The notes: generated from the sequence alone by a model not told the origin. A stretch of DNA of 64,000 nucleotides from Candidatus Nomurabacteria bacterium (GCA_026395955.1 JAPLXR010000007.1:1957-65956), one strand, 5' to 3'. Counted from the stretch's first letter, positions 16,575-37,206 are shown. Program-made: numbers and translations.

Positions 16575-16617
16575 TCCTCACCACTTCTAGCGATAGCAAA
16601 GAGTGGTGAGTAAAATT

Positions 16618-17487
16618 ATGAAAACAATACAACACAAAGCAAAAAAATCATTAGGGCAAAACTTTTTAAAATCAGTACCAGCACTGCATGCTATTGTGAA
16701 TGCAGGTGAAATAAAAGATACTGATACTATTTTAGAAATTGGTCCTGGTAAAGGTGCCCTCACAGAGAAACTTTTAGAAGTCGCAGGTACTGTTATCGCA
16801 ATAGAAAAAGATCGCGACTTGTTAGAATTTTTACAAACAAAATTTTCTAAAAAAATTACAGAAGGTAAATTTATTTTAATAAATGGAGATGTGCTAGAAG
16901 TGGAGGATAGTATTGTAAAAAACCTTGGTAGGAGCGACGGCGACGGACAGAGAAAATCTTTAGCAAAAGATTTTCGTGTTTTCGAAAATGCTATCCTCCA
17001 CGGAGGATATAAAATAATTGCAAATATTCCATACAACATTACTGGAGCGATTTTGAAAAAGTTCCTTACTGCAGAAAATCAACCAGAAAGAATGGTATTA
17101 ATGGTGCAAAATGAAGTAGCAAAGAGAATAGTCGCTCGTGATGGAAGTGAAAGTATTTTATCTATCTCAGTCAAAGCATATGGAAATCCAAAAATAATTA
17201 TGAAAGTTCCTGCACGATATTTTTCTCCAGCACCAAAAGTTGATTCTGCAATTATAGCTATCACAGAAATAAATAGAAATAATTTTAAAAATAAAAACTT
17301 AGAGGAAAAATTCTGGGAACTGGTAAAGACTGGTTTTGCACATAAAAGAAAAATACTACTAAGTAATCTCAAAGAACTTGCTAGGCAAGACCTAGCAAGT
17401 ATATTTGTGAATTTAAAAATACCAGAAAAAGCTCGAGCTGAAAATTTAAAACCAGTAGACTGGCTAGAAATTGCTAAAAAATTATAA
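16618..17487 (+). CDS. rsmA: 16S rRNA (adenine1518/1519-N6)-dimethyltransferase RsmA/KsgA, with a ~27-aa insertion
   Basis: KKSLGQNFL start, SAM motif LEIGPGKGALT, NIPYNIT motif; ORF-table start 16603 shortened to Met 16618. Confidence 0.85.
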   Translation: MKTIQHKAKKSLGQNFLKSVPALHAIVNAGEIKDTDTILEIGPGKGALTEKLLEVAGTVIAIEKDRDLLEFLQTKFSKKITEGKFILINGDVLEVEDSIVKNLGRSDGDGQRKSLAKDFRVFENAILHGGYKIIANIPYNITGAILKKFLTAENQPERMVLMVQNEVAKRIVARDGSESILSISVKAYGNPKIIMKVPARYFSPAPKVDSAIIAITEINRNNFKNKNLEEKFWELVKTGFAHKRKILLSNLKELARQDLASIFVNLKIPEKARAENLKPVDWLEIAKKL

Positions 17488-17507: not shown

Positions 17508-17900
17508 ATGCAAAAAATGGCAAAAAAAGACTGGACTAAACTTTCTATACTAATAGTACTAATAGTCTCATTTGAAATAGCTCATGCATCTAGTGGTCAA
17601 TTTTTTGCTGGTAGAATAACTCAAGCTCCTGATCAAGAAGTACAATCTTTAGCAGACTCTGATTATACTTGTGAACCAGAAAATACGACCATAGATATTC
17701 AATCATTTAAAGGTCCAACAGCTTACTATATACCACAAGGCACAGAATCAAAAACAAAAAACCAACAAAAAGATGGTCAATTAGTAATAGGACGTTATAG
17801 TGGCACAACAACGATAACATGCACAGAAGACACTGAACCTTACGATGTACAAACATTTCAATTTAACACGATAGATATGTGGGCAAATTCAAAACAATAA
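17508..17900 (+). CDS. Small secreted protein (130 aa, signal peptide); first gene of the surface/T4SS-like island
   Basis: N-terminal hydrophobic signal ending AHA-SS; -10 TATAAT immediately upstream. Confidence 0.5.
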   Translation: MQKMAKKDWTKLSILIVLIVSFEIAHASSGQFFAGRITQAPDQEVQSLADSDYTCEPENTTIDIQSFKGPTAYYIPQGTESKTKNQQKDGQLVIGRYSGTTTITCTEDTEPYDVQTFQFNTIDMWANSKQ

Positions 17901-18883
17901 TGTTAAATAAAATAATAAATAGTAAATATATGCCTAGTAAAAAAATAAAAATAGTTTTATTTATTTTTATTTTTTTACTAGTTATTTTATTTATTTTCTT
18001 AAAATCATCAACAAAATCAAGCTTTTTTTCAAAAAAAGATAATTTAGAGGTTCAGAATTCAACAATAAATGACCTTATAGCAAAAGACACAGATGGTGAT
18101 GGTATTCCAGATTGGGAAGAGTCACTTTGGGGGACTGACAAAAACAAAGTATCAACTTTTACTGGAACAGATGATAAAACATACATTGAAAACAAGAAAA
18201 AAGAACTAAGTTTGTCAAATGCAAGTAGTACAGACAATTTAACAGAAACACAAAAATTCTCTAGAGATTTCTTTACAGCTTTTATGTCTATGAAAACAGG
18301 ACAAGTAGACAATACTACAATTAATAGTTTTTCTGCTGCGTTAGGACAAAAAGTAGCAGATCCTAATCTAACAGATCAATACACTGAAAAAGATTTAAAA
18401 TTAGATGTTTCAGGAGATTTAAATAAACAAAAAAAATATTACATGAGTATACAGAGTCTTTTTGAACAATATCAACTTTCAGGATTAGGAGACGAATTAG
18501 ATATTGTTAGCCAAACATTGGCATCTGGAGATGATACAAATAAAGCAACTCAAATAATGCAATTACTTAAAATATCTGATGCTTACAAGGGTTTTGCATC
18601 TAAAATCATGGATTTAGAAGTTCCAGAAAAACTAAAAAATATACATCTAAGGATAGCAAACAGTTCAAATAACACAGGAATCAGTGTCTTAAATATGTCT
18701 AAAATAATAGGAGACCCTGTTGTTGGATTGTCCGGCCTTTCTCAATATCAAAAATATAGTAATGATTTAATAATTGCTGCTGGTGACCTAGAGACAACTC
18801 TACCAGATAATGGTAATATAGTAAGTAATACAAAAAATGTTAAAAGTAGCACCCAACAAAATTTATTAAATAGTATTCAATAA
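17900..18883 (+). CDS. Membrane-anchored protein with a DTDGDGIPDWEE calcium-binding-like motif
   Basis: TAATG stop/start coupling with the upstream ORF; N-terminal TM then a DxDGDGxxDxxE loop. Confidence 0.5.
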   Translation: MLNKIINSKYMPSKKIKIVLFIFIFLLVILFIFLKSSTKSSFFSKKDNLEVQNSTINDLIAKDTDGDGIPDWEESLWGTDKNKVSTFTGTDDKTYIENKKKELSLSNASSTDNLTETQKFSRDFFTAFMSMKTGQVDNTTINSFSAALGQKVADPNLTDQYTEKDLKLDVSGDLNKQKKYYMSIQSLFEQYQLSGLGDELDIVSQTLASGDDTNKATQIMQLLKISDAYKGFASKIMDLEVPEKLKNIHLRIANSSNNTGISVLNMSKIIGDPVVGLSGLSQYQKYSNDLIIAAGDLETTLPDNGNIVSNTKNVKSSTQQNLLNSIQ

Positions 18884-21664
18884 ATGATAAAAAAGTATTT
18901 TCAAAAAATAATCTGTTCAATTGCAATGCTAGGCATTATATTAATGCCATATTTAAGCATACCAACAACAACATATGCTTATAGTAGCCCAGTGGGAATA
19001 GAAGGGTATATAAAAACATTATCACCGCTCATATCCTCATTACCTGGATGTAAAGAAGTTTTGAAGTCAGGAATGAAAGATATGTTTTCTAAAATAAAAG
19101 GTGCTTTTAGTAGTAGTGGGAGTAGTGATACAGAAAACACAAATATTAATGATGCTGCAGACACAGACACACTAGGAGAAGAACAACAAGCCATAGAAAT
19201 ATACAACAAAGGCCTTGAAACAAATATTAAGGGAACAAAAGCATCATCAGCAGAAACAGAAAAACAAACTAGTTCTATCAATAAAAACAAAACATGTCTT
19301 GATGGAATAGGAAAAGCTGTCGCAAAAATACTTTTAAACGAAATGACAAAGAGTATGGTGGAATGGATCAACGGTGGAATGGATGGTACACCAAAATTTG
19401 TTCATGATCCTGCTGCTTTTTTTGGTGACATAGCTAAAAATGAAGTTTTACAATTTGGCCTTGAAATAAATAATCCAGCCTTATTCCCATTCGGGAAAGA
19501 TTTTATAAAAATGCAAAAAGATGCTTTTGTAAAACATTTTTCTGATAATGCAAAATATTCTCTAGACCAAGCAATCGGTGCTACAAATCCAGGTAAAACT
19601 GGTGCAGATTTTAAATTAAATTTTAGTGACGGAGGATGGGGAGCATGGACTGCAATGACACAAAATACTGCAAACAATCCTATTGGATTTAATATCGCTG
19701 CATCAAATGAACTCTCAATGAGATTAAATGGAACACAACAAACTACAGCAGATAAATATAAAGACCAGATAGCGACAGCTAACGGCTATTTAAACCAAGA
19801 ACGTTGTGCCGAAGAAGCTGTTGTAGATGACACAGATGGAAGTGTTCATTTAGAAACAAACCATGACATAACAAGAGGTGAAGACAATCAATATTTAAGA
19901 GGTGTCGAAGGTGCTCGTCATTGTGCTACATGGGAAACTGTCACTCCAGGTAAACTCATCTCGGAATCAGCAACAAAAACACTTAATTTCAGGTCTGACT
20001 CATTATTATCTGTAGGTGACTTAAATGATGCTACGGCAGCATTGATAGACGCAACCCTTAGTATGATCGCTACAAAAATCGCAGGTAGTGATGGTTTCAC
20101 AGGACTTTCAGAAGATCCGAATGGAACTTCAAATTCATTTGATTTAAATGGTGGAAGTTCTTTAGCTTCACAATCTCAAACAGATCAAGATTTCCCTGCA
20201 TCTCTTGGTGGTAGTAATTGGTTAACAGCAAATCCTGATTTCAACATCAGAACAGATATAACCCAAGCTTTGATAGATGAACAAAGAATATATATACAAA
20301 AACTACAAGACCAAAATACTGAATTAAAATCAGTGAAAAATGTTAACAATACGAATTATAACTATGGATTGTTGCCAATAATTTATCAACTTGATTATTG
20401 TATTCCAGGACCACATCCAGGATGGGAAGATGAGGCACAGAGAAATCTAGATGACGCTAAAAGTAAAATAGTTGATATTGGTGGTATGAATTTTGCACAG
20501 ATAAATAGAGCAACCGGTGTAGGTAGTTCAGCAGATTGGGATGTTATGTTCCTTGCATTTAATACTTTTGTTTTGGGAACAGGTGGAATAGCTAACTATG
20601 AAACAGTAGATAAAGCGCTTCATTTAACAGATAAATATTCATATCAATATTTAGATGGTTTTAGTCAAAAATACTTAGGGATTTCATTCACAAAAGATGG
20701 TGCTTCTGAATCGTATAAAAATACAATTGGTGCCCTTAATCAAGCTTTTGATGGATATAAACAATCAGTAAATAATGTGTTTAACACTCTTACTCTTCCA
20801 GGTGTTGCAGATCAAGCTAAAAAAGAATTTAACACTGCTACTGGTTATCAAGGAATATTTGATAAAAATACTACAGAAATAGCAGGTAAACAAGCTGATA
20901 TAAAAAGACTTGTAGATATTAAATCAGCAATAGAAAATTTGACAATTCAAAAAAATAACCAGACACTACCATTAACAATGATTGACCCTATAACAAATTC
21001 TGTTACAACAGATTATAATGCTCAATTTGAAGAAGATTTAAAGCCTTACATAAGTACTTTTGCTCGTGTATCTGCAAACATGGTTACAGGAGATGATATA
21101 GCAAAAGCAGATAATCTGTTGCAACAAATAAAAGACAAGGAAAAATATATCTATAATGACTTAATAAAAGGCCCAACTGGTTGTGAAAAAGAACTATCTA
21201 CTCAACCATGGCAAATGAAAAGATACCCTTATCCTTTACCTATAATATATGATTACAATTCAACAACAAACCCGTTACCTGATCCTTTTGGAAATGGTAT
21301 TTTCCATACAACACCAGTATTAAATCCTTCAGTTTATACTGCAAGTAGTATGCCATCTACTGCAGGAATGATATGGGTTGATTTCTCTGGTGTAAAAGAA
21401 AATCCTCCACCAAACTTACCAATGTTTGATGGAGAACAAGACCACTATAATGGACCAGGTAGCTTACAAACATTAACATCCTTCTGTCAGTATATTGCGG
21501 AAAAATCAAGACTAACTCAGCCAGGAGTAGCATATTCTTCATGTAATGAAGTGGGAAGTAACTTTACTAATATTCACATAGGAGAATTAAACTTTGATAC
21601 CGGATGGAGTCAGGGCACACAATACAATGTAACTACCCTTGAGAGAACGTTGGGGATTTATTAA
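18884..21664 (+). CDS. Large secreted protein (926 aa), unknown function
   Basis: Signal peptide (IAMLGIILMPYLSIPTTTYAYS); start abuts the upstream stop. Confidence 0.6.
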   Translation: MIKKYFQKIICSIAMLGIILMPYLSIPTTTYAYSSPVGIEGYIKTLSPLISSLPGCKEVLKSGMKDMFSKIKGAFSSSGSSDTENTNINDAADTDTLGEEQQAIEIYNKGLETNIKGTKASSAETEKQTSSINKNKTCLDGIGKAVAKILLNEMTKSMVEWINGGMDGTPKFVHDPAAFFGDIAKNEVLQFGLEINNPALFPFGKDFIKMQKDAFVKHFSDNAKYSLDQAIGATNPGKTGADFKLNFSDGGWGAWTAMTQNTANNPIGFNIAASNELSMRLNGTQQTTADKYKDQIATANGYLNQERCAEEAVVDDTDGSVHLETNHDITRGEDNQYLRGVEGARHCATWETVTPGKLISESATKTLNFRSDSLLSVGDLNDATAALIDATLSMIATKIAGSDGFTGLSEDPNGTSNSFDLNGGSSLASQSQTDQDFPASLGGSNWLTANPDFNIRTDITQALIDEQRIYIQKLQDQNTELKSVKNVNNTNYNYGLLPIIYQLDYCIPGPHPGWEDEAQRNLDDAKSKIVDIGGMNFAQINRATGVGSSADWDVMFLAFNTFVLGTGGIANYETVDKALHLTDKYSYQYLDGFSQKYLGISFTKDGASESYKNTIGALNQAFDGYKQSVNNVFNTLTLPGVADQAKKEFNTATGYQGIFDKNTTEIAGKQADIKRLVDIKSAIENLTIQKNNQTLPLTMIDPITNSVTTDYNAQFEEDLKPYISTFARVSANMVTGDDIAKADNLLQQIKDKEKYIYNDLIKGPTGCEKELSTQPWQMKRYPYPLPIIYDYNSTTNPLPDPFGNGIFHTTPVLNPSVYTASSMPSTAGMIWVDFSGVKENPPPNLPMFDGEQDHYNGPGSLQTLTSFCQYIAEKSRLTQPGVAYSSCNEVGSNFTNIHIGELNFDTGWSQGTQYNVTTLERTLGIY

Positions 21665-21701
21665 AAGTAACATTAAATAATAAATGTGCTAAAATAAAGA
21701 T

Positions 21702-24700
21702 ATGTTACTTTTTAAGGGAGCTAAGAAAAATATTTTTGGGATATCTTTATTAATTATATTAATAATATATTTTAGTGTTCTAATTTTTTCAAAAAAAACT
21801 TCAGCTTACGCAACAGGTCCTGTTGTTCTAGGTACACAACCAGCAACAAATATAACGACAACGTCTGCGGTTTTAAATGGAATTGTTACAAATACAAGAG
21901 GAGAGATACCAACTTATATAAAGTTTATGCTTTCAACAGACCAACAGTCTTGGACTGATTTTCCTTTAAATCCAGCATATTTACTAATGGCACCAGACAC
22001 AGACGGAAATCCATACTCAATAGATACCTCTATGGCTACTTCACCTGTAAATAATTTAACTTCCAATACTCTTTATTATTATAAAGCTTGTGCCATGAAT
22101 AGTGCTGGAAGTAGCTGTAGCAATTTGCCTCTTAGAACATTTACAACATCCAATCCAAATAGTTCTGGAAACAATAACGGTTCAAGTAATACAGGCACAT
22201 CATATAACACAACGACTCAATCAACAATAAGCAATGTAATAACACACGATTTTACTAACCTTACTGACACTTCTGTAAAGTTAAATGGTGAAGGAACAGT
22301 ATCTGCTCCTGATTATGCATATTTCAGATATTCAAAAGTAGACCCAAATCCTCCTATTTTTTGTAATGATTTATATGGATCAAGTATGAGTTCAAAAAAG
22401 GCAACATTTCCAAATTCAGACGGATCATACACAAGTGCTAACAGTGGTACTATTTTTTCTACTGGAATAAATGGATTAGAACCAGACACAACATATTACT
22501 ATTGTGCAGTAGTATCAAATAGTGCAAATAGTTCTGGTTTTGGAAGACCAAATACTGAAATAAAATATGGTGGTGTAAAAACATTCAAAACAAAGTGTGG
22601 TACTACATGTACAACAATAGAAACAAAAAATCCTTCAAGCATCACAAAAGATTCTGTATATCTAAATGGATCTTTTAACTCCACACAAGCTACAAAAACT
22701 TGGTTTGAATACGAAATAGATCCGGCATCATTACCTCAAGGTAGTCCAACTCCTGTATGGCAAACAGTAAATGTTGAAAATCATACAGCGCAATCAGTGG
22801 GTAATAATAATAGAATACAATTTCAAGTTACAGGATTAACACCAAATACTTCATATATATACAAAGCAGTAGCTCAAACAGACTGGGGAACACTAGGCAA
22901 TCCAAATCCTCAAAATTATTATGGTATTGATATGAGTTTTACAACAAATCCTCCAGACTCAACACCAGATACTCCGACAGATCCAGGAACAACACAAGAT
23001 CCAAATAGTGGTTATGATAGTGGCGGACCATCATATGATAATGGAGGAGGTGCTCCTAGTGCTTGTTCTTCATTAACAATCAAACCAATAAGTAACAAAA
23101 CTATTTACGCTGGTCATAATTTATCTTTTGCTGTACACACTTGTGGAGCAAATGGAGAGACAGTAACATATCAAATAACTAACATACCACCATTAGCTAT
23201 TTTTAATTCTAATGGAATGTTTGTCTGGAATACTAATTTCAGCCAAACAGGTATTTATGATGTAACATTCGATGCGTCTACTCCATCAGGTAATAATGCA
23301 AGTCCAGTCACTGTGAGAATAACAGTGACCCCACCAAACACAAATTGTCCTTCATTAACAATTGAACCGATCGAAGATCAAGAATTTATAACTGACCAAT
23401 ATAATACTTTTTATGCAAATATCTGTGGAAATTTCGGACAACAAGTAACATACTCAATAGCTAATCTTCCAACAGGTGCAGGAATACTTCCAAATGGACT
23501 TTTTGTATGGGTTCCTACAGCTGATCAAGTAGGACAACATCAGATATTTGTTAATGCAGTTTCTGGTACACAAACAGTATCACTAACAGTTAATGTAAAC
23601 GTTACATTAACACAAAATGGACCAAACCCTAATGGTAATCCTAACGGAGATCCTAATGGTGGACCAAATGGAGGAAATACAAACAACTGTCCTAATTTTA
23701 TAATTAGACCAATAAGTGATAAACACACCCAAGCAGGATCACCTATTTCTTTTACAGCACATACATGTGGAAACCAAGGCAAACCAGTAACATATTCTAT
23801 AACTTCAACACTAATGCCTGGAGGTGCAGGAATAGGACCAGCAAATGGAAGATTTTCTTGGTCAACAGGAGGAAATCAGGCTGGTAGTTATGATATAACT
23901 ATACATGCTAAAGCACCGATAGGAGCATTAGATTTGATCACTAATACTCAAGCTATGGTTGATGCAACGCCAATAACAGTACACATAACAGTAACACCTA
24001 TACCTATCAGTTGTGGAACTTTAACAATAAATTCATTACATAATGAGCATTTCTATGTTGATCAAATAGATACTTTCAATGTAACAGTTTGTGGAAATCA
24101 TGGAGAACAAGTTACTTATTCTCCTGAGAATATACCTTCAGGTGCAACTCTTGATCCTTCAACAGGACTATTTACATGGACACCGACTTCTAGTGATTTA
24201 GGTTTACATGCAATATTAATAGGTGCAAAAACATCAACACAAAGAATGGTAACAGCATCTATGAGTATTAATGTTACAGACAGATCAGGCAATTCAAATA
24301 ACCAAGGAGACCCTAACACTGGACGTACTTGTCCAACGACATCAACTGGTGTTTGGCCAAGATGTGTAGACAATGCTACTGGTGTTGGATTTTGTGATAC
24401 AGGATCAACAGGGACTTATCCTAATTGTGTTGTTACAAATACAGGAGGTAGTGGTTCTGGAAATGGTAACAGTAATGGTGGTAATGGAACATTCGGAAAT
24501 GGAAACAATGGTAATGGAGGAAATGGAAATGGTCCAACAGTATTAGGGTCTGCAAACAATCCAGCTCCGGCTATTGGAAGCTTCTTGGTACCACCGAGTA
24601 TGGACTTGGTTCACTATCACGAAGGAGTAGAACACGTATTAACAAGACAAATAATGGGCGACATTGCTCTGGCAAAAATATATGGATATCAAGATGGCCA

Positions 24701-24935
24701 AAACTTGTTAGTATTTGCACAAAACCTAGCGCATACTTTTGCAACAATGTTTGGTTATTACCAAGGAGGAGGCAGAGAAATTCGTGTCACTGTTCCAGAC
24801 ATCGCAGCATACCAACTCGGACTCAAAGACGGAATGCTCGCAGTATATGAATATTACGACAACCATTTAACAGGTGTAGCTACAGCGACAGGAAGCATCA
24901 GAGATATATTTGAATACGAATATTATTTCCACTAA
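21702..24935 (+). CDS. Large surface protein (1077 aa): N-terminal anchor, FN3-like region, four ~90-aa Ig-like (putative-Ig/cadherin-like) repeats separated by N/G/P-rich linkers
   Basis: Four repeats C..L.I.PI...........F.....CG..G..VTYS....P.GA.......F.W.P; linkers NGNPNGDPNGGPNGGN and GNGNSNGGNGTFGNGNNGNGGNGNG. Confidence 0.65.
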   Translation: MLLFKGAKKNIFGISLLIILIIYFSVLIFSKKTSAYATGPVVLGTQPATNITTTSAVLNGIVTNTRGEIPTYIKFMLSTDQQSWTDFPLNPAYLLMAPDTDGNPYSIDTSMATSPVNNLTSNTLYYYKACAMNSAGSSCSNLPLRTFTTSNPNSSGNNNGSSNTGTSYNTTTQSTISNVITHDFTNLTDTSVKLNGEGTVSAPDYAYFRYSKVDPNPPIFCNDLYGSSMSSKKATFPNSDGSYTSANSGTIFSTGINGLEPDTTYYYCAVVSNSANSSGFGRPNTEIKYGGVKTFKTKCGTTCTTIETKNPSSITKDSVYLNGSFNSTQATKTWFEYEIDPASLPQGSPTPVWQTVNVENHTAQSVGNNNRIQFQVTGLTPNTSYIYKAVAQTDWGTLGNPNPQNYYGIDMSFTTNPPDSTPDTPTDPGTTQDPNSGYDSGGPSYDNGGGAPSACSSLTIKPISNKTIYAGHNLSFAVHTCGANGETVTYQITNIPPLAIFNSNGMFVWNTNFSQTGIYDVTFDASTPSGNNASPVTVRITVTPPNTNCPSLTIEPIEDQEFITDQYNTFYANICGNFGQQVTYSIANLPTGAGILPNGLFVWVPTADQVGQHQIFVNAVSGTQTVSLTVNVNVTLTQNGPNPNGNPNGDPNGGPNGGNTNNCPNFIIRPISDKHTQAGSPISFTAHTCGNQGKPVTYSITSTLMPGGAGIGPANGRFSWSTGGNQAGSYDITIHAKAPIGALDLITNTQAMVDATPITVHITVTPIPISCGTLTINSLHNEHFYVDQIDTFNVTVCGNHGEQVTYSPENIPSGATLDPSTGLFTWTPTSSDLGLHAILIGAKTSTQRMVTASMSINVTDRSGNSNNQGDPNTGRTCPTTSTGVWPRCVDNATGVGFCDTGSTGTYPNCVVTNTGGSGSGNGNSNGGNGTFGNGNNGNGGNGNGPTVLGSANNPAPAIGSFLVPPSMDLVHYHEGVEHVLTRQIMGDIALAKIYGYQDGQNLLVFAQNLAHTFATMFGYYQGGGREIRVTVPDIAAYQLGLKDGMLAVYEYYDNHLTGVATATGSIRDIFEYEYYFH

Positions 24936-24965
24936 TTTATTTTTATAAAGTAGGGGATAAAAGTA

Positions 24966-24994
24966 TTACTTTTAAAAAGTGAATATAGTATAAT
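24966..24994 (+). promoter_or_regulatory. Sigma70-like promoter (TTACTT-17-TATAAT) upstream of the VirB6-like gene
   Basis: Hexamers at 24966-24971 and 24989-24994. Confidence 0.45.
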
Positions 24995-25031
24995 ATATTC
25001 AGAGTGAATAACTCTATCTCATAATTTTTAA

Positions 25032-27203: not shown

Positions 27204-27227
27204 AAATTATAAATAATAAATAAAATT

Positions 27228-28037
27228 ATGGACGAAAATACAAAAAAAATAATAAAAGAAAAATTTGATTCTCTGCCAGAGAGCATCCAAGAAGTTATTT
27301 TGTCTTCAAATTATCAAGACACTTTGGTTGAGATAGGAAAACAAAATAATTTAAGTCTAAACCAAATGGGAACATTAGAACTAGAAGCTACTTTGGTCAT
27401 GATGGGTCTAACTCCGACAGCAGAATTTGAAACAGAACTAACGAAAGAATTAGCCGTCGATCCTATGAAGGGTTCAAAAATAGTGAATGAAATCAATGAA
27501 AAAATATTTATAAAAATCAGAGATTTATTAAAATTAATGAACACCCCAAAAGGAGAGGAACCTAGTTTAGATGCTGAAAACGAACGTTTACACGAAGAAT
27601 CAAATGTTCCTTTTAAAGTATTTACTCCTACAGAAAAAATTACTATTCCAGTAAAAACAGAAAGCCTAATTACTACACTTCAACAAGAAAAAGAATCTAT
27701 TAAAGACAATTCAGTATTAGAAACAGCTGGTATTGAAATAGTGAATCAAGCTCCAATGAGAAATGCTGTACCTTCAGATGCAGGAGGTGAGACAAGAAAT
27801 GAAATATTAAAAAGTGTTGAGCAACCAGAATCAATAGGTAAAACAGTTGAAAAACCAAAAGAAACAAGTAATGTTGGTTCTATTTTGGCCTCCAAGTTAA
27901 CAGAGAGTTTTAAAATCCCTGCAGGAAATACAGAATACACGATGAACAACATGACAAAAGATAATCAAAAAACACAATTAGCTGCAAGCCCAAGTATTCC
28001 AAAAGTTGATCCATACAGAATGCCGTTAGACGAATAA
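27228..28037 (+). CDS. Hypothetical soluble protein (269 aa) within the T4SS-like module
   Basis: ORF between the VirB6-like and PrgI-like genes; no TM segment. Confidence 0.5.
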   Translation: MDENTKKIIKEKFDSLPESIQEVILSSNYQDTLVEIGKQNNLSLNQMGTLELEATLVMMGLTPTAEFETELTKELAVDPMKGSKIVNEINEKIFIKIRDLLKLMNTPKGEEPSLDAENERLHEESNVPFKVFTPTEKITIPVKTESLITTLQQEKESIKDNSVLETAGIEIVNQAPMRNAVPSDAGGETRNEILKSVEQPESIGKTVEKPKETSNVGSILASKLTESFKIPAGNTEYTMNNMTKDNQKTQLAASPSIPKVDPYRMPLDE

Positions 28038-28122
28038 CCCCACCCCAATGCTTTGCATTTTCCCCTCCCCATTTTTTAAAAAAAATGGGGAGGGGTTAAG
28101 GGAGGGGTTCTGCATACATTCG
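28038..28122. repeat. GC-rich palindromic repeat element, copy A (85 bp): G4C4 hairpin with A/T loop plus G-quadruplex-capable tail
   Basis: cccctcccca-T6A8-tggggagggg hairpin (28062-28095); GGGGAGGGGTTAAGGGAGGGG (28087-28107); ~88% identical to 45006-45086. Confidence 0.7.
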
Positions 28123-28147
28123 ATTTGTTTCATGCTAAAATTAAAAT

Positions 28148-28573
28148 ATGCAATTTAAAGTTCCACAATTCTTAGATATAGAAGATAAAATATTCGGACC
28201 TTTTACGTTCCGTCAATTTGCATACATGGCTGGTGGAGCTGGACTTTGTTTTGTAATTTACAGAACAACTTCTTTAATAGTAGGAATAATACCTATTTTA
28301 GCTATAGCTGGTTTTTCTCTCGCTTTAACTTTTTACAAAATAAATAACAAACCTTTTATTTTTGTTTTAGAAGCTGCTTTTAGTTATTTATTTCGTGATA
28401 AATTATATATTTGGAAAAGAAGGTTAAAGAAACCAGGAGAAAAAGAAGCAGAAGACTTGAAGAAAAGCGAAGAAAATACAGAAAACCAAGCAAGGAGAGT
28501 AAGTAAATTAGGTACAAGTAAATTAAAAGATTTAGCATGGAGTTTAGATGTATTAGACGTAAAGAAACAATAA
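28148..28573 (+). CDS. PrgI-family protein (VirB3 analogue of Gram-positive-type T4SS)
   Basis: MQFKVPQFLDIEDKIFGPFTFRQFAYMAGGAGL followed by two TM helices; length and motif typical of the PrgI family. Confidence 0.6.
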   Translation: MQFKVPQFLDIEDKIFGPFTFRQFAYMAGGAGLCFVIYRTTSLIVGIIPILAIAGFSLALTFYKINNKPFIFVLEAAFSYLFRDKLYIWKRRLKKPGEKEAEDLKKSEENTENQARRVSKLGTSKLKDLAWSLDVLDVKKQ

Positions 28574-28582
28574 TAAAATTAT

Positions 28583-29236
28583 ATGGCATTATCAGCAAAA
28601 GCAACTCAAGAGTTCGTCCCAATAAAAGAAGTCCGCGATGGTATCGTGGTTCTTAAAGATGGGGGACTTCGTGCTATTGTTTTGGCCAATTCTACAAACT
28701 TATCTCTAAAATCAGCAGATGAACAAAAAGCTACGATAATGCAATTCCAATCTTTTTTGAATACTATAGATTTTCCAATTCAAATAGTTGTCCAATCAAG
28801 ACGCCTAGATATTCGTCCATATCTTTTACTTTTAGAAAATAGAATAAAAGTACAAAACGAACCACTCTTGAAAGTTCAAACAAAAGAATATATGGAATTT
28901 ATCAGAAACTTCACTGAGACTACAAATATAATGACAAAAAGTTTCTTTGTAGTTGTTCCTTATACACCAAACAAATTAGCTTCAACGGGTGGAATTTTTA
29001 GTAATTTTTTTAATAAAAAAAACAAAGCAATGGAAAAAGAAGCTCAGAAGCAGGATTTTGAAGAAAAAAGATCTCAACTTGATCAAAGAATAGGAATAAT
29101 AGAGCAAGGATTAGCACGTTGTGGTTTGAAATCTGTAGAGCTTGGAACCGAAGAAGTAGTAGAAGTTTATTATAAAGTTTTTAACCCAGGTGAAGTTGAA
29201 GGTAAAATAGATTTAGGACAAGGACAATCAGCATAA
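28583..29236 (+). CDS. VirB4/TraC-family ATPase, N-terminal domain fragment
   Basis: FVPIKEVRDGIVVLKDGGLRAIVLANSTNLSL...EQKATIMQFQSFLNTIDFPIQIVV matches the conserved N-terminus of VirB4/CD1110-type ATPases. Confidence 0.5.
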   Translation: MALSAKATQEFVPIKEVRDGIVVLKDGGLRAIVLANSTNLSLKSADEQKATIMQFQSFLNTIDFPIQIVVQSRRLDIRPYLLLLENRIKVQNEPLLKVQTKEYMEFIRNFTETTNIMTKSFFVVVPYTPNKLASTGGIFSNFFNKKNKAMEKEAQKQDFEEKRSQLDQRIGIIEQGLARCGLKSVELGTEEVVEVYYKVFNPGEVEGKIDLGQGQSA

Positions 29237-29270
29237 TACTGTTATAATATAACAAGTTAAATAAATATAT

Positions 29271-31109
29271 ATGTCGATATTTGATTCATTATTTGGAAAA
29301 AAGAAAACAGGAAAAGATGCCACCAGGGCTTCTGTTTTAGCCGTATTACCAGAAGAAATATATGAATCAGCAACACTAGAACTCCAAGATATAATAGCCC
29401 CTTCAGCATTAAAAGTAGAACCGAAATCATTAAACTTAGGGGATAAAATAGCTCGTACATTTTTCGTTATTTCTTATCCTAGATTCCTCACAGACAATTG
29501 GTTTTCTCCAATCATTAACTTGGATAAAATTTTTGATGTTGCTATCTATATACACCCAATAGATACATCATTAGCATTACGTGAATTTCAAAAGAAGGTT
29601 GCTGAAGTACAAAGTCAGATAAATGCTCGTGAATCAAAAGGTATGGTTCGTGATCCTATGCTTGATACTGCGAACGAAGATTTGGAAAATCTTCGTGACA
29701 GTTTAATGCAGGCACAAGAAAAGATGTTTGATGTTGGATTATATATTACTATTTATGCCGACAATGACCTAGAATTATTTAAAATAGAAAGTGAAATAAA
29801 ATCTATCCTAGAATCAAAACTTATTTATTTAAAACCTGCCTTATTCCAACAAGATGAAGGTTTTAAAAGTGTTATACCGATAGGTAATGATACTCTAAAT
29901 GTTCATCAAAAATTAAATTCTGAGCCATTATCGAGTATTTTTCCATTCGTTTCTTTCGACCTTACATCAGACAAAGGTATTTTGTACGGTTTAAACAGGC
30001 ACAATTCAAGTCTCGTTATCTTCGATAGATTTTCTCTCGAAAACTATAACTCTGTTATGTTCGCAAAGTCTGGATCCGGAAAATCATATTTTACAAAACT
30101 AGAAATTCTTCGTTCTCTAATGTTTGAAACAGATGTTATTGTTATTGACCCTGAAAGGGAATATGAATTCTTAGCAGAAGCTGTAGGTGGTAGATATTTT
30201 AATATCTCACTTTCTTCTGACCACCATATCAATCCTTTTGATTTACCTATACCACGTGAAGACGAAACAGCTGCTGATGTTTTACGTTCAAACATCATCA
30301 ACCTTGTTGGTTTATTTCGTCTCATGCTAGGAGGACTTACACCGGAAGAAGATTCATTAGTAGATCGTGCTATTTCTGAAACTTATGCAATCAAAGACAT
30401 AACTCCTGATTCTGATTTTTCAAATATTGAACCACCACTTCTTTCAGACTTTGAAATGGTTCTTTCTGGCATGGAAAACAGTGAGTCAGTTATTCAACGT
30501 TTAGTTAAATACACACGTGGATCTTGGTCTACATTCTTAAACAAACCATCAAACGTAGATATTAATAGAAAATTCATAGTTTTCTCTGTACGTGATATGG
30601 AAGATGAATTAAAACCTATCGCGATGTATATAGTTACACACTTTATATGGAATGCTGTACGTAAAAATCTTAAAAAGAGATTACTGGTGGTTGACGAGGC
30701 TTGGTGGATGATGAAAAGTGAAGACACTGCTTCATTCCTTTATAGTATTGCAAAAAGAGGTAGAAAATATTATTTAGGGCTTGCTACTATTACTCAAGAT
30801 GCGGCAGACTTTATGAAATCTCCATACGGAGCACCTATTGTTACAAACTCTTCTATTCAAATACTATTAAAACAATCTCCATCTACAATAGACATTCTAC
30901 AAAAAACATTCAACTTAACAGATGAAGAAAAATATCTCTTACTTGAATCCGGAGTGGGGGAGGGTATATTCTTCGCCGGAACAAAACACGTTGCTTTGAA
31001 AGTAATATCTTCATATACAGAAGACCAGATTATTACTTCTGATCCATCACAAATATTATCTATAAAGAAGGCGAAACAAGAGCTAGCGGAAGCAGAAGGT
31101 AAGAAATAA
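29271..31109 (+). CDS. VirB4/TraC-family T4SS ATPase (central and C-terminal ATPase domains)
   Basis: Walker A AKSGSGKSYF (30061-30090), Walker B LLVVDEAWWMM; pilus-assembly/conjugal ATPase context. Confidence 0.7.
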   Translation: MSIFDSLFGKKKTGKDATRASVLAVLPEEIYESATLELQDIIAPSALKVEPKSLNLGDKIARTFFVISYPRFLTDNWFSPIINLDKIFDVAIYIHPIDTSLALREFQKKVAEVQSQINARESKGMVRDPMLDTANEDLENLRDSLMQAQEKMFDVGLYITIYADNDLELFKIESEIKSILESKLIYLKPALFQQDEGFKSVIPIGNDTLNVHQKLNSEPLSSIFPFVSFDLTSDKGILYGLNRHNSSLVIFDRFSLENYNSVMFAKSGSGKSYFTKLEILRSLMFETDVIVIDPEREYEFLAEAVGGRYFNISLSSDHHINPFDLPIPREDETAADVLRSNIINLVGLFRLMLGGLTPEEDSLVDRAISETYAIKDITPDSDFSNIEPPLLSDFEMVLSGMENSESVIQRLVKYTRGSWSTFLNKPSNVDINRKFIVFSVRDMEDELKPIAMYIVTHFIWNAVRKNLKKRLLVVDEAWWMMKSEDTASFLYSIAKRGRKYYLGLATITQDAADFMKSPYGAPIVTNSSIQILLKQSPSTIDILQKTFNLTDEEKYLLLESGVGEGIFFAGTKHVALKVISSYTEDQIITSDPSQILSIKKAKQELAEAEGKK

Positions 31110-31163
31110 AAATAAAAGATTTTAGTCTTTTATAACTTATGATTATAGGTTATAATAAATAGA

Positions 31164-32144
31164 ATGATAAAAAGGTTCAAAATTTCAGCTATTATATTTA
31201 CTTTAATGTTTTTTGCTTTTTCTGCTCATGCAGAAGTACATAATAGTGATATTATTTTAAATACATCGCCTAGATTTCCTAATCCAAATCAAAATGTTAA
31301 GGCAAGTGTCAGCACTTATGCAACAGATTTAAATAAGGCAAACATATCTTGGTCTATAAATGGAAAAGAGTCTGCAGTTGGTGTAGGTAAAAAAGATTTT
31401 ACTTTTACAATGGGAAATGTCGGTGAATCTTTGAGCCTCGAAGCTAAAATAGAAACAGTTGAAGGACAGAGTATTAATAAAAATATTCTTTTAACTCCAG
31501 CTGAAGTAGACATGCTTTGGGAGGGTTATGATTCATACACACCACCTTTTTATCGTGGAAAAACATTAGTTCCAGAAGAGGGAACTTTTAAAGTCGTTGC
31601 TATGCCAAACCTAACAACAACATACGGACACATGAATCCAGAAAATCTATCTTATATATGGAAACAAGATGATAATGGCCAACCACAAGCTTCTGGTTGG
31701 GGTAAGAATTATTATACTTTCAAAAATAGTTATTTAGATAAAAACAATAAAATAGAAGTAACTGCTTCTGACATAACAGGTGCGACTAATGCAACAGGGA
31801 ATCTAACTTTATATACAGCAAATCCTGAAATACTTTTTTATGAAAACAATCCAAATCTAGGTATAAATTATAGCTCTGTAATAAACAATGGTTTCAATAT
31901 AAATAAAAAAGGAGAGACTTTTGTGGTAGAACCTTATTTCTTTGAACCAAGAGATTTAAGTTCTCCAAACCTACAATTCGATTGGTCAATAAATGACACA
32001 CAAACAGCTACGCCAACTCCTAAGAATTTTCTATCTATAAAACCAGACCCAAATCAATCCGGAAGTGCTAAAATAAACATATCGATTAATAATGCAAAAA
32101 CACTTTTCCAAAGTTTAACCAAAGAATTAAATGTTAATTTTTAA
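31164..32144 (+). CDS. Secreted protein (326 aa), unknown function
   Basis: Signal peptide (AIIFTLMFFAFSAHA); stop overlaps the start region of the next gene. Confidence 0.55.
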   Translation: MIKRFKISAIIFTLMFFAFSAHAEVHNSDIILNTSPRFPNPNQNVKASVSTYATDLNKANISWSINGKESAVGVGKKDFTFTMGNVGESLSLEAKIETVEGQSINKNILLTPAEVDMLWEGYDSYTPPFYRGKTLVPEEGTFKVVAMPNLTTTYGHMNPENLSYIWKQDDNGQPQASGWGKNYYTFKNSYLDKNNKIEVTASDITGATNATGNLTLYTANPEILFYENNPNLGINYSSVINNGFNINKKGETFVVEPYFFEPRDLSSPNLQFDWSINDTQTATPTPKNFLSIKPDPNQSGSAKINISINNAKTLFQSLTKELNVNF

Positions 32145-32145
32145 T

Positions 32146-33981
32146 ATGAAAAAAATAATCTCAAAAATTTTAATAAGCACTATACTTGCTTCTATTGTGT
32201 TTGGGTTTTTTGTATTTAATCCTAAAACATCTTTTGCTACAGGCACTTGTACAGTTCAATCTGCGACATTTACTCCAAACGGAACTCAGGTTGCTGCATG
32301 GTATCATGATGGACACGAACCAGAAGTACTGGTTGATATAGTAACAACAAACTGTGAAGGGCAAACAATACAGGCATCTATTCGAGCTACAATACAACAG
32401 CAAAGCATTGCAGCATTAAACAGAAAGGATATTATCGTACCTGCAAGCAATCACATGATCATCCATATGAAGGCAGGAGAAGATACTTGTACTAGTATTG
32501 GCCACTCTTCTACTACCCCGGATTGTACCTTCTTTATTGCTGTATACCTCCCAGGAACATTAGTAACACCTGATTACGAAACTAACTCGCAAGCAACAAC
32601 TGCAGGTAAATTACTGTATAAATGTGACGGTTATTGTACTACTGCCAACTGGCAATTTCTCTACGTTGATCGAGTGGGTGGGCAAGTATCTTTTGATACA
32701 AACAGTTTTATTACCCAAGTCAACACCACAGCAGCTAATTTGAGTCTGATCATTCTAACTACCGAAGACGGCTATGTGAACAACTCAGCTGGTGTAACAT
32801 TAACCGATGCTACTGGTGCAGTAATCGGAACCGAACAACTTGTTCCTATAGCAAATAATACAGCGACTCAAACAGTGCATGCTCAATTTCCTAATCTTAC
32901 TGCGGGAGCAAGTTACGCATGGCGTGCGCACATCACTAAAAGTGACACAAATGTAATTAAAAGTATTACGAAAACATTTACCTTACAAGATAGTTCACAT
33001 AATGGTCAACCTCTTACAAGTGGCACTGCTCCGCAATTAGACACGGGCCACCTGGATGATACATCTTCTTCTGTAAACACTAATACCGATTATTATCCAT
33101 TAGCACCATTACCAGGAGTAGGGGTGGTGTGTTCAAATAATCCAGATACAAACGACCCGACAAATAAAAATTGTATTCATACACAAAAAGATGAATCTAC
33201 AAACCCTTGTCCTTTTGGAGATTATTTAAATGCTTTAATAAAAATATTTATCGGTATTTGTGCAGTCTTAGCTTTTATAATGATCGTTCTCGGTGGAATA
33301 GAATATATCACAAGCGAGCTCATCTCTAATAAGGCAGAAGGCAAGAAGCGCATAACCGGCGCAATATTCGGTCTCATTCTCGCTCTTGCTTCTTATGCAT
33401 TACTTAACACAATCAATCCTGCAGTGTTACAGGTTTGTTTAAATCAATTGCCTCAAGCAACAGTAACAATAGGTGGTGATACAAATACTCCAATTGCTAG
33501 CAACATAACAGGTACACTTCCTTCTGGGATAGTATGTACTAGTGGACAATCAAACATACCAGCTATTGCAAATAGTTTTGCTGGTAAGATGACTTATCTT
33601 ATGGGAGCAAAAGGAACTCCAGGACCAAACAACACAATACAACTTGATTGTTCTGGTTTCGTAAACTATGTATTAAAATGCGCTGGTGTACCATTTATAA
33701 ACGGAGGTACAGCAAATATCTTTAGTGGAGCTGAAAATGTAACTTCGATTTCTGGAAGTTCAGTAAATGGTCAAGCATTACATATAGGAGATTTATTAGG
33801 ATGGATGCCAGGAGAACTAGGAAATAAATACGGAGGCTCAGGTCACGTAATGATATATATAGGAAATAGCAGTGTTCAAGCAGCAGATTCTCATGGAGGA
33901 TCTTCTGTTGGAAATGCATTAGGAGTATTTCCAATAACAAAGTATGCAACAGATATTAAACACATTAAAAGAGCACCATAA
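32146..33981 (+). CDS. Secreted/membrane protein with C-terminal NlpC/P60 (CHAP-like) cell-wall hydrolase domain; candidate VirB1-like hydrolase
   Basis: Signal peptide; TM pair near IFIGICAVLAFIMIVLGG...GAIFGLILALASYALL; catalytic Cys in LDCSGFV and His in GHVMIY. Confidence 0.65.
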   Translation: MKKIISKILISTILASIVFGFFVFNPKTSFATGTCTVQSATFTPNGTQVAAWYHDGHEPEVLVDIVTTNCEGQTIQASIRATIQQQSIAALNRKDIIVPASNHMIIHMKAGEDTCTSIGHSSTTPDCTFFIAVYLPGTLVTPDYETNSQATTAGKLLYKCDGYCTTANWQFLYVDRVGGQVSFDTNSFITQVNTTAANLSLIILTTEDGYVNNSAGVTLTDATGAVIGTEQLVPIANNTATQTVHAQFPNLTAGASYAWRAHITKSDTNVIKSITKTFTLQDSSHNGQPLTSGTAPQLDTGHLDDTSSSVNTNTDYYPLAPLPGVGVVCSNNPDTNDPTNKNCIHTQKDESTNPCPFGDYLNALIKIFIGICAVLAFIMIVLGGIEYITSELISNKAEGKKRITGAIFGLILALASYALLNTINPAVLQVCLNQLPQATVTIGGDTNTPIASNITGTLPSGIVCTSGQSNIPAIANSFAGKMTYLMGAKGTPGPNNTIQLDCSGFVNYVLKCAGVPFINGGTANIFSGAENVTSISGSSVNGQALHIGDLLGWMPGELGNKYGGSGHVMIYIGNSSVQAADSHGGSSVGNALGVFPITKYATDIKHIKRAP

Positions 33982-33989
33982 ATTATAAT

Positions 33990-35363
33990 ATGCAAAAAAG
34001 AAACGTAATACTTTTAATAATCACTCTCGGGGCCATCACACTTGGTTTCTTTATATATTTATATATGTTCCCAAGCACAAAACCATTAACACAAAACACA
34101 GATTCAGGTTCTTTTAATTTCTTTCCATTTGGAAGTACTCCTAAAAAGGGGACTACAGACAATCCGGCAAACATATCAGGAATAATTACAAATAACCCAT
34201 TAACAGACAATCCAGTTGTAAATAACGCAAAAATAAAAAAAATCTCTAGTTTCCCTGTAGCAGGTTATGGTATATATAACAAACAAATTTTCCAAAACAT
34301 ACCACTAGAGACACCTTCATCAACTCCAATGATAGATCAAACAGCTACAAGTACACCAAAAAAGGCAGTAGCTAAAACACCAGCAGTAAAACCTACACCA
34401 CCACCTACGATACTCGTCACCACAGTTAGATACGTAAACAAAGAAACAGGTAACATATACCAAACACCAGCAGATAATATCAGCGAGACAAAATACACAG
34501 CAACAATAATTCCAAAAATATATGAATCATTTTTTGCAAACAATTCTGGTCAAGTTATAATGCGTTATTTAAAAGAAGACTATAAGACAATAGAAACTTA
34601 TCTAGGAACACTCCCTGTAGAAGTTCTAGGAGGGGACTCAACAAACACAAATGAAATAAAAGGTTCTTTCTTGCCAGAAAACATTACAGACATGAGTGTT
34701 TCTCCAGACGAAAGTAATATTTTTTACTTAATAAATTCTAATAATTCTACAGTAGGTGTCACAGCAGGAGCATTAGGAGACAAGAAGACTCAAATATTTA
34801 ATTCTGCTTTTAATGGTTGGATTACACAATGGCCAAATGCAAAAATAATTACAATTACAACAAAAGCTGCAGCGGGTTATCCTGGATATATGTATTCAAT
34901 AGATCCATCAATGAAAACTATAAATAAAGTTATTGGTGGAATAAGTGGCCTTACAACACTCATGAGTCCTTCAGGAAATTTTGTTCTATACAATACTTCA
35001 AATAATGGAACAGTTAGTCTAAATATTTATCACACAGATACAGGCAATTCAGATCAATTGGGAATAAAAACTTTACCAGAAAAATGTGTTTGGGCTAAAG
35101 CAAGTAGTTCTCTATACTGTGCAGTTCCTCGTTTTATGGATAGTGCTAAATATCCAGATGACTGGTATAAAGGATTAATTTCTTTTGGAGATGAAATTTG
35201 GAAAGTAGATTTAACTAATGGAAATGCAAAGAAAATAGCAGACTCAGTACAAACAACAGGGGAGGAAGTAGATGGAATAAAATTAGGAATAGATGATGGA
35301 GAAAATTATTTATTCTTCATAAACAAAAAAGACGGCTATCTCTGGGAATTGAATTTAAAATAA
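33990..35363 (+). CDS. N-terminally anchored extracytoplasmic protein (457 aa), unknown function
   Basis: Single N-terminal TM, then Thr/Pro-rich linker and a beta-rich domain; last gene of the island. Confidence 0.55.
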   Translation: MQKRNVILLIITLGAITLGFFIYLYMFPSTKPLTQNTDSGSFNFFPFGSTPKKGTTDNPANISGIITNNPLTDNPVVNNAKIKKISSFPVAGYGIYNKQIFQNIPLETPSSTPMIDQTATSTPKKAVAKTPAVKPTPPPTILVTTVRYVNKETGNIYQTPADNISETKYTATIIPKIYESFFANNSGQVIMRYLKEDYKTIETYLGTLPVEVLGGDSTNTNEIKGSFLPENITDMSVSPDESNIFYLINSNNSTVGVTAGALGDKKTQIFNSAFNGWITQWPNAKIITITTKAAAGYPGYMYSIDPSMKTINKVIGGISGLTTLMSPSGNFVLYNTSNNGTVSLNIYHTDTGNSDQLGIKTLPEKCVWAKASSSLYCAVPRFMDSAKYPDDWYKGLISFGDEIWKVDLTNGNAKKIADSVQTTGEEVDGIKLGIDDGENYLFFINKKDGYLWELNLK

Positions 35364-35368
35364 TATAA

Positions 35369-35396
35369 AAAACCGGCATTGCCGGTTTTTTATATA
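35369..35396. terminator. Bidirectional terminator between convergent genes
   Basis: aaaaaCCGGCAttGCCGGtttttt. Confidence 0.7.
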
Positions 35397-35875: not shown

Positions 35876-35889
35876 AATATTTTAAAAAA

Positions 35890-36609: not shown

Positions 36610-36645
36610 TCTCTCATTCTACTCTAGAATTATAAAAAATCAAAG

Positions 36646-37192: not shown

Positions 37193-37206
37193 ACGCTAAA
37201 ATAAGC

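Follow-up and report, generated by a model that had tools for sequence, protein, structure and literature searches.

A chromosomal type IV secretion-like locus beside dnaA in Candidatus Nomurabacteria, with a pilin-like hairpin carried by a modular cell-wall enzyme

We describe a block of genes encoding a type IV secretion system (T4SS)-like machine in Candidatus Nomurabacteria. The DNA analysed, hereafter the window, is a 64-kb stretch of a metagenome-assembled genome (MAG), and the block occupies positions 17508-35363. Plus-strand genes follow one another there without interruption, with rsmA (16603-17487) on one side and jag/yidC/yidD/rnpA/rpmH (35390-37341, minus strand) on the other; beyond this convergent cluster lie dnaA (37493-38854) and dnaN (39106-40203). 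An earlier note on this DNA had described the run as 12 genes, mostly for signal-peptide or membrane proteins. The run is as described, and its composition agrees: by hydropathy, 10 of its members have a signal or anchor N-terminus or transmembrane (TM) segments, the exceptions being the protein called o269 and both pieces of VirB4. The count is higher, with 13 tightly packed open reading frames (ORFs). The T4SS-like components are the following:

25032-27203, plus strand: VirB6/TrbL-like polytopic membrane protein with a signal peptide, about six TM helices (aa 80-420) and a long charged C-terminal tail.
28148-28573, plus strand: PrgI-family VirB3 analogue (PF12666, E 3.1e-8, 34.5 bits for a cutoff of 27) with a two-TM hairpin at aa 33-61.
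28583-29236, plus strand: TrsD-like protein of 217 aa, the VirB4 N-terminal domain as a separate polypeptide (NCBIfam, Pfam and hhalign).
29271-31109, plus strand: VirB4 core ATPase of 612 aa (Pfam, NCBIfam and PDB matches; Walker A and B intact).
32131-33981, plus strand: modular envelope protein of 616 aa with signal peptide, ectodomain, T4SS_pilin hairpin and NlpC/P60 domain.

Relatives of the locus were collected in a one-genome-per-species scan that found at least 594 stretches with a VirB4 relative. The best 80 loci, with VirB4 75-95% identical, were fetched, and gene maps were read for 23 full-length loci by tblastn of the window proteins. One order is present in all 23 maps: pcrA-rsmA-o334-o926-(variable Ig protein)-VirB6-o269-PrgI-TrsD-VirB4-o326-pilin/hydrolase-o457, followed on the opposite strand by jag-yidC-rnpA, and then by dnaA-dnaN. 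In some more distant loci, o269, jag or rnpA fell under detection. The placement between rsmA and jag/dnaA is identical even where DnaA is only 55% identical. The synteny comparison that the earlier note had suggested thus yields a pcrA-to-dnaN order that recurs across species, and its view of a stable chromosomal system beside dnaA is borne out by a position that is fixed in the related genomes examined. Its term "island" has to be abandoned: besides the conserved synteny, the GC profile of the window shows no step at the block borders, no att-like direct repeats were found flanking the region, and no tRNA lies near the block, the closest being 19 kb off (an Rfam scan of the window found three tRNAs only). 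Judged from gene order and sequence, the locus is a vertically inherited core locus.

An NCBI protein (P0001) of a Candidatus Nomurabacteria MAG has the same sequence as the VirB4 core. Among the matches listed, the other 119 VirB4 clusters share 86-95% identity with it and measure 596-626 aa (almost all 609-626), and the named sources are Nomurabacteria, Paceibacterota, Minisyncoccia or Patescibacteria. The labels of the best 80 loci are mostly Nomurabacteria or Paceibacterota, together with many catalogue MAGs titled "uncultured Candidatus Saccharibacteria bacterium" (L012, L013, L020, L021 and many more). The VirB4 of the latter shares 75-87% identity with that of Nomurabacteria, and where maps were read the gene order is that of Paceibacteria; their names resemble automated-catalogue mislabels.

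Assignment of the ATPase is supported by several searches. The core matches Pfam P-loop_TraG (1e-25) and AAA_10; its best NCBIfam model is the Clostridioides CD1110 VirB4-like family (379 bits, cutoff 325), and its PDB matches include the VirB4 C-terminal domain 4ag5 (3e-41) and R388 TrwK (4.5e-8). Walker A reads KSGSGKSY and Walker B LLVVDEAWW. The preceding TrsD-like ORF is parted from the core by a TAA stop and a 34-nt spacer that holds more stops. It matches only the N-terminal parts of VirB4 NCBIfam models (1e-11 and 4.8e-5) and TrsD/TraD (3.4e-5); an identical ORF has a precomputed assignment to Pfam PF26593 TraC-like, and a search of the TrsD-like profile against PDB gave no meaningful match. 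When both were aligned by hhalign to an unsplit, 783-aa VirB4 of Clostridium perfringens, the TrsD-like profile fell on residues 21-200 and the core on residues 205-755 (E 2e-83, 32% identical over 550 residues). Because the two alignments tile one unsplit VirB4, the two ORFs together make one VirB4. The split is kept in relatives, which have 77 complete ORFs of ~214 aa and 79 complete ORFs of ~613 aa; the TrsD-like ORF is present in 80/80 loci (median 214 aa). A separate TrsD ORF is known in the pGO1 (TrsD/TrsE) subclass. Hence, the earlier proposal of a VirB4 gene at 28583-31109 was right as to family and Walker motifs, while its single gene is in fact two ORFs.

The PrgI identity of 28148-28573, also proposed earlier, is confirmed by a PF12666 score above the cutoff, and PrgI lies directly upstream of TrsD/VirB4 in 76 of the 80 loci. 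In one locus (L049:8858-9923) the PrgI and TrsD matches are on the strand opposite VirB4, which may reflect a local inversion or an assembly artefact.

The VirB6/TrbL identity of 25032-27203 is less direct. Neither the protein itself nor 39 orthologues gave a Pfam TrbL (PF04610) match, and the family profile found no VirB6 among PDB sequences. However, a homologue (P0228, E 1.2e-32 to the query) matches TrbL/VirB6 PF04610 with 27.5 bits for a cutoff of 25.9, and two more (P0233 and P0235) fall slightly under that cutoff. An AlphaFold model of residues 1-430 has a predicted local distance difference test (pLDDT) score of 82, and its top fold matches among natural proteins are TrwI/VirB6 and DotA. 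A VirB6-like assignment is thus supported by transitive homology and predicted fold, and not by the direct TrbL match that might have been expected from the earlier note. Between VirB6 and PrgI, 55 loci encode an o269 protein (median 32% identity):

27228-28037, plus strand: o269, soluble acidic protein, weakly conserved and without TM segment.

Pfam and NCBIfam searches gave no match for o269, which is probably cytoplasmic and may be an accessory factor.

The protein encoded by 32131-33981 deserves separate description. From the N-terminus, it comprises a signal peptide, a variable ectodomain (aa ~30-320), a VirB2-like TM hairpin (aa ~366-430) and an NlpC/P60 domain (aa 490-586). The last of these had been recognised in the earlier note, and its PF00877 score (28.6 bits, cutoff 23), the catalytic Cys in LDCSGFV and the His in GHVMIY are in agreement. 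What had been overlooked is the hairpin, which matches T4SS_pilin PF18895 (29.7 bits, cutoff 26.6). By the positive-inside rule, the NlpC/P60 domain is expected outside the membrane. Some 320 aa precede the hairpin and 184 aa follow it, so the protein is not a free propilin of ~100-150 aa.

Comparison of 72 positional orthologues indicates that the conserved part is aa ~320-450 only, that is, the hairpin and a preceding YxLLAPLP motif. PF18895 was detected in 59 of them (TrbC/VirB2 PF04956 also, in 5), and at least 100 aa follow the hairpin in 67 (median 186 aa). In about half of the orthologues a cell-wall enzyme can be recognised in this tail, and its type varies: NlpC/P60 in 16/72, VanY in 8/72, YkuD in 5/72, Peptidase_M15_4 in 3/72, SLT types in 3/72 and Amidase_2 in 1/72. 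A sister species (L002), whose VirB4 and DnaA are each 95% identical to those of the window, has Peptidase_M15_4 in place of NlpC/P60, and further close relatives have YkuD or VanY heads (examples of orthologues are L002:12844-14259, L005:7688-8893 and L008:12869-14227). The N-terminal ectodomain is variable too: its length ranges between 23 and 478 aa, and it contains TIG, CBM_10 or Big_1 domains. An exhaustive search with the hairpin alone found 14,836 cluster representatives at E <= 1e-3; at least 149 aa follow the hairpin in 146 of the best 150, and 60 representatives contained the same mixture of enzyme heads. One protein of 618 aa (P0376) has four separate pilin-hairpin matches, a tandem multi-hairpin variant. 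As far as sequence comparison goes, a modular architecture made of a hairpin and exchangeable heads is shown; a fusion of this kind was not found in the literature searched.

Pairwise identities in 49 Paceibacteria genomes (1176 pairs) have a median of 80% for the VirB4 core, 66% for DnaA, 62% for TrsD, 58% for DnaN, 51% for PrgI, 49% for YidC, 36% for o457, 33% for o326 and 26% for VirB6, and VirB4 identity is higher than DnaA identity in 98.5% of the pairs. When the window was compared with its three closest relatives, dN (nonsynonymous divergence) was 0.045-0.073 for VirB4, 0.031-0.163 for DnaA and 0.42-0.76 for the Ig protein and the hairpin protein; synonymous divergence is saturated (dS > 1), so that only dN and ranking are usable and ratios are rough, with no gene near a ratio of 1. 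These figures show very strong purifying selection on the VirB4 sequence.

DNA-processing genes were sought in Pfam scans of the window (non-nested ORFs of at least ~100 aa), and no VirD4/TcpA coupling protein, relaxase, integrase or recombinase was found in the 64 kb. Outside the block, the scans gave housekeeping functions only (PNPase, PBP1, RuvABC, PolA, a PilB-type ATPase and tRNA synthetase). These results uphold what the earlier note had said of the locus, namely that neither coupling ATPase nor relaxase is visible and that it is not a standard conjugative element: T4SS parts are present, with no relaxase or type IV coupling protein (T4CP), integrase or att-like repeats found in the window, nor any full conjugative set immediately adjacent.

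Nevertheless, kinship with conjugation systems can be traced. Outside the Candidate Phyla Radiation (CPR), the best plasmid relatives of VirB4 are from Bacillota and Actinomycetota (28-36% identity). The C. perfringens plasmid pSXP-169_2, of the CD1110/CD1115 families, has the order MobC-relaxase-DUF3801-VirD4-x-x-PrgI-VirB4-SLT hydrolase, and therefore shares with the window the succession of PrgI, VirB4 and peptidoglycan hydrolase. Directly upstream, the plasmid has MobC, a relaxase and, three genes upstream of PrgI, a VirD4-like T4CP; its VirB4, of 783 aa, is unsplit. The window lacks these, and its locus sits in a housekeeping neighbourhood. Monoderm affinity is thus indicated by the CD1110 model above its cutoff, by the plasmid relatives in Bacillota and Actinomycetota and by the gene order in C. 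perfringens. Monoderm conjugation systems are described as devoid of VirB2-like pilins (PMC12102498; PMC12857230).

The remaining ORFs of the block encode exported proteins:

17508-17900, plus strand: o130, small secreted protein with a signal-peptide-like N-terminus (hydropathy).
17879-18883, plus strand: o334, N-terminally membrane-anchored protein (strong TM at aa 23-41) with a Ca-binding-like motif, DTDGDGIPDWEE.
18884-21664, plus strand: o926, large secreted protein with a signal peptide, a conserved N-terminal third (~aa 138-530) and a coiled-coil-like middle.
21702-24935, plus strand: o1077, variable surface protein with Ig/FN3 repeats (He_PIG 1.5e-15, fn3-like matches).
31164-32144, plus strand: o326, secreted protein with three tandem Ig/FN3-like beta-sandwich domains (all-beta AlphaFold2 model, pLDDT 89.6).
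33990-35363, plus strand: o457, N-terminally anchored extracytoplasmic protein (TM at aa 6-24), the last gene of the block.

Relevant observations on these proteins are as follows. The first ORF, o130, has no Pfam match and was found by tblastn in 3 of the 80 loci only; most loci end short of that upstream position. The conserved first gene after rsmA is o334, present in 38 loci and always between rsmA and o926; Pfam gave TSP3_bac below threshold only, and a profile search against PDB gave nothing. Pfam searches of 39 orthologues of o926, which is at the same position in 49 loci, pointed to no consistent family, and its PDB profile search returned only coiled-coil noise.

The o1077 gene has internal repeats of 282-342 nt. 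Genes of its type occur in 14 loci as ORFs of 309-1257 aa, always directly upstream of VirB6, and what they share is only a C-terminal module of ~115 aa (24543-24932; aa ~957-1077) that ends in YEYYF. The motif of the module can be written VRYHEGxExVF...EIRV..PDxAAY..VYEYY...YEYYF-stop, and no PDB or Pfam match was found for it. By its distribution, o1077 is a clade-specific insertion just upstream of VirB6. In one locus (L006:3395-7168) an Ig part, a piece of the module and VirB6 make up a single ORF of 1257 aa.

Downstream of VirB4, o326 is present in 75/80 loci with a constant length of ~326 aa, and its Foldseek matches are generic Ig-tandem or adhesin proteins only. It was considered as the missing VirB8-like protein and rejected, as the model consists of three Ig-like beta sandwiches and not of an NTF2 fold. 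The last gene, o457, is present in 70 loci (median 41% identity). None of 39 members gave a Pfam family at E <= 0.001, and the weak match of the family profile to a TolB propeller (E 0.006) suggests that o457 is possibly a TolB-like beta-propeller. The surrounding secreted proteins, taken in the earlier note as candidate adhesins or substrates, are likely accessory or adhesin parts.

Two features were located in the intergenic DNA on the dnaA side of the block:

35363-35395, between the T4SS block and the convergent jag: strong bidirectional hairpin terminator (15-bp stem with 5 GC pairs, T-rich tails).
38865-39057, in the dnaA-dnaN spacer: DnaA-box cluster, putative oriC, with one perfect TTATCCACA and three one-mismatch boxes in 193 nt.

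A further perfect DnaA box lies at 37416-37424 in the rpmH-dnaA spacer, DnaA-box matches of such quality number only 26 across the 64 kb, and the lowest GC of the window coincides with the dnaA-dnaN spacer. Location of oriC by GC skew was attempted and rejected, as the skew tracks the coding strand and has no inflection at dnaA; AT skew likewise follows the coding strand without a switch at dnaA. Origin proximity is thus argued from gene order and the DnaA-box cluster, not from GC skew. If oriC is at dnaA, the plus-strand run 5238-35363, T4SS included, would be transcribed toward the origin and head-on with the leftward fork, an orientation that is awkward for the gene-dosage argument by which closeness to the origin has been explained in print. 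The dedicated promoter once proposed at 24966-24994 does not stand: it is a 9/12 consensus match, of which the region has 79, and shuffled sequences have 85 +/- 10.

On the other side, pcrA (encoding a UvrD-family helicase) and rsmA (14550-17487 in the window) are directly upstream of the block in every related locus that reaches there (L008, L014, L017, L024, L038, L070 and L078), which is probably housekeeping synteny. PcrA is the host helicase used by integrative and conjugative elements (ICEs) of Gram-positive bacteria, including ICEBs1. Farther upstream, at 9845-14152, a highly charged ORF of 1435 aa has no Pfam or NCBIfam match; it harbors a DHH-phosphoesterase-like motif (ADHHGTEGG) and Gly/Ala-rich TM-like segments in its C-terminal half, and the DNA has strong positive AT skew. 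At 47122-48819, 12 kb from the block, a PilB/T2SSE-type ATPase (E 3.8e-115) indicates that type IV pilus machinery is separate from the T4SS in this genome.

Systems of this kind have been described before. A survey by Quinonero-Coronel et al. (2025, Microb Genom; PMC12102498) found VirB4 in 2,417 of 3,035 Patescibacteria genomes, nearly all in one clade within the MPF-FATA class of mating-pair formation (MPF) systems, with a separate TrsD and with genes for PrgI/VirB3, VirB6 and PF18895/VirB2-like proteins near virB4. In the same survey, VirB1 homologues were associated with virB4 mainly in Paceibacteria; relaxases occurred in only 103 of the 3,035 genomes, and T4CP homologues were mostly far from virB4. 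In Paceibacteria and Microgenomatia, virB4 was close to dnaA, dnaN, rnpA, ksgA and rpmH. These points are repeated in a 2025 review (PMC12857230). The window shares with the Paceibacteria arrangement VirB4 and a separate TrsD-like ORF, PrgI/VirB3, VirB6, PF18895, a VirB1-type hydrolase, the absence of a nearby relaxase or T4CP, and proximity to dnaA, dnaN, rnpA, ksgA (rsmA) and rpmH; nothing essential differs. The survey makes no mention of a hairpin and a hydrolase in one polypeptide with exchangeable heads, of a conservation of VirB4 higher than that of DnaA, or of the membership of o334, o926, o326 and o457.

For the saccharibacterium Southlakia epibionticum, Wang et al. (2023, Cell; PMC10633639) showed by transposon sequencing that a T4SS (SEML1_0006-0019) is essential to growth as an epibiont. 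That system is of Gram-positive type, with pilins and without recognizable coupling protein or relaxase. Like the locus of the window, it is chromosomal and has Gram-positive-type subunits and pilin-like genes, and its low locus-tag numbers suggest proximity to dnaA. Southlakia, however, has an array of six small, divergent VirB2-like pilins, and its peptidase and lysozyme are encoded by genes of their own downstream of virB4, whereas the window has one pilin-like hairpin, fused to a hydrolase. The locus thus belongs to the published Patescibacteria T4SS, including relaxase absence and dnaA proximity, and the likeness to pared-down T4SS-like loci of episymbiotic CPR bacteria that the earlier note had pointed out was a correct rediscovery of the system described in PMC10633639 and PMC12102498.

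Comparison can be extended to better known machines. CwlT of ICEBs1, PrgK of pCF10 and TraG of pIP501 are, like the protein of the window, membrane-held cell-wall hydrolases encoded beside virB4, and CwlT also uses an NlpC/P60 endopeptidase domain. In hydrolases of this type the anchor is a simple N-terminal TM helix, and a peptidase is usually joined to a muramidase or SLT domain. The protein of the window is instead anchored mid-sequence by a two-helix, VirB2-like hairpin, and its single head is exchanged between species. An effector T4SS whose locus encodes no coupling ATPase is also found in Bordetella Ptl, which exports Sec-delivered pertussis toxin, and in Brucella VirB. Both are diderm MPF-T systems with a VirB7/9/10 outer-membrane core that has no counterpart in the window (on the missing coupling ATPase, see PMC12102498 and PMC12857230).

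Taken together, the data make it very likely that the locus is a chromosomal Patescibacteria T4SS-like system, descended from monoderm MPF-FATA conjugation machinery and without adjacent relaxase or coupling protein. A tentative model is that VirB4/TrsD hexamers, docked via PrgI on a VirB6 channel of the cytoplasmic membrane, would power assembly and transport. The hairpin-tethered hydrolase would open peptidoglycan locally, whether in the own wall, in that of the host or in both, and the fast-evolving exported Ig-like and propeller-like proteins would form the extracellular portion and touch the host cell. The most likely use is a contact-dependent exchange with the host cell and not DNA conjugation. 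As to the direction of such exchange, that proteins or enzymes are exported to the surface of the host is a serious possibility that we advance tentatively, and import of host macromolecules seems somewhat less probable.

Several points weigh against this interpretation. A VirB8-like (NTF2-fold) component was not found, and the o334, o926 and o457 profiles find no VirB8 in PDB. VirB8 is also reported to be mostly undetectable in Patescibacteria (PMC12102498). The absence of a T4CP concerns the 64-kb window, and a coupling protein may be encoded elsewhere in the genome: VirD4-like genes are present in 2,918 of 3,035 Patescibacteria genomes, mostly far from virB4 (PMC12102498). Placement of VirB4 in its clade relies on similarity. 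Lastly, because similarity of VirB4 served to rank the 80 loci, identity comparisons are slightly biased in its favor, although the gaps of 10-25 points are far larger.

Among other explanations, one is that the machine works in reverse, as Helicobacter ComB and archaeal Ced do, and takes up DNA, RNA or nucleotides from the host for a cell unable to produce them. Nucleotide biosynthesis is absent from Patescibacteria (PMC10633639), and a design without T4CP suits systems that do not recruit substrates from the cytoplasm. In addition, a 2026 preprint reports that a cultivated parasite acquires host RNA and that tubules at the contact site "may be" T4SS pili (10.64898/2026.06.21.733656). The VirB4 core is weakly similar to the DNA-import ATPase CedB (1.3e-8), but this match, at 33.9 bits for a cutoff of 700, represents generic P-loop similarity, and no nucleic-acid-binding component is recognisable in the block. 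Furthermore, a comEC mutant of Southlakia is viable while its T4SS is essential (PMC12857230), so that essentiality is not explained by ComEC-dependent DNA uptake. We consider an uptake machine improbable.

Still less probable is that VirB4 and VirB6 build a surface organelle, either pilus-like or an adhesin-bearing holdfast, without translocating any substrate. In classical VirB/D4 T4SSs VirB4 is a pilus-biogenesis ATPase, the VirB2-like hairpin is conserved, and most genes of the block encode fast-evolving exported Ig-like or propeller-like proteins, as expected from surfaces that contact a host. Yet the only pilin-like element of the locus is found inside a 616-aa protein that bears an enzyme and not in a free pilin of ~100 aa, and a separate type IV pilus ATPase, the PilB at 47122-48819, is available for adhesion or motility.

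An ICE or its decayed remnant, that is, a horizontally acquired island whose T4SS moves its own DNA, can be practically dismissed: the components do derive from monoderm conjugation systems, a PcrA-type helicase is encoded two genes upstream and the locus had been termed an island, but the 64 kb contain no relaxase, T4CP, integrase or recombinase and no flanking direct repeats, adjacent tRNA or GC discontinuity, the rsmA-jag/dnaA placement is the same in species with a DnaA only 55% identical, relaxases are rare in the Patescibacteria surveyed (the 103 genomes of PMC12102498), and a VirB4 that evolves more slowly than DnaA rules out a decayed remnant.

Returning to a contact-dependent T4SS as the preferred interpretation, the hairpin protein admits a speculation, in which we have little confidence. 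The lone VirB2-like element of the Paceibacteria T4SS locus might be the membrane hairpin of a modular enzyme instead of a free pilin, a T4SS-tethered tool matched to the wall chemistry of the host and a determinant of host range. If so, the fast-evolving Ig-repeat protein might dock on VirB6 through its conserved C-terminal module. An alternative is that the hairpin protein could be a propilin from which the enzyme domain is cleaved off.

Patescibacteria account for much of the diversity of bacteria, and attachment to host cells is, so far as is known, their way of life. To our knowledge, their T4SS is the first one shown to be essential for its bearer. What the window contributes is a clean example, from Paceibacteria, of a kind of system already known. 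The additions are incremental: a hairpin with cell-wall enzyme heads that are not the same even in sister species, four more envelope proteins conserved in the block, and a conserved C-terminal module in the Ig protein. A constraint on the VirB4 core stronger than that on DnaA argues that the machine is as indispensable in Paceibacteria as in Saccharibacteria. In turn, o334, o926, o326 and o457, together with the C-terminal module of the Ig protein, constitute a conserved, unannotated envelope set whose members are candidates for the missing extracellular parts. Finally, what surveys count as a "pilin" belongs, in this locus, to a cell-wall enzyme with exchangeable heads, an observation that tempers the view that conjugative-type pili are made by all T4SSs of Patescibacteria and points to the cell wall as a target.

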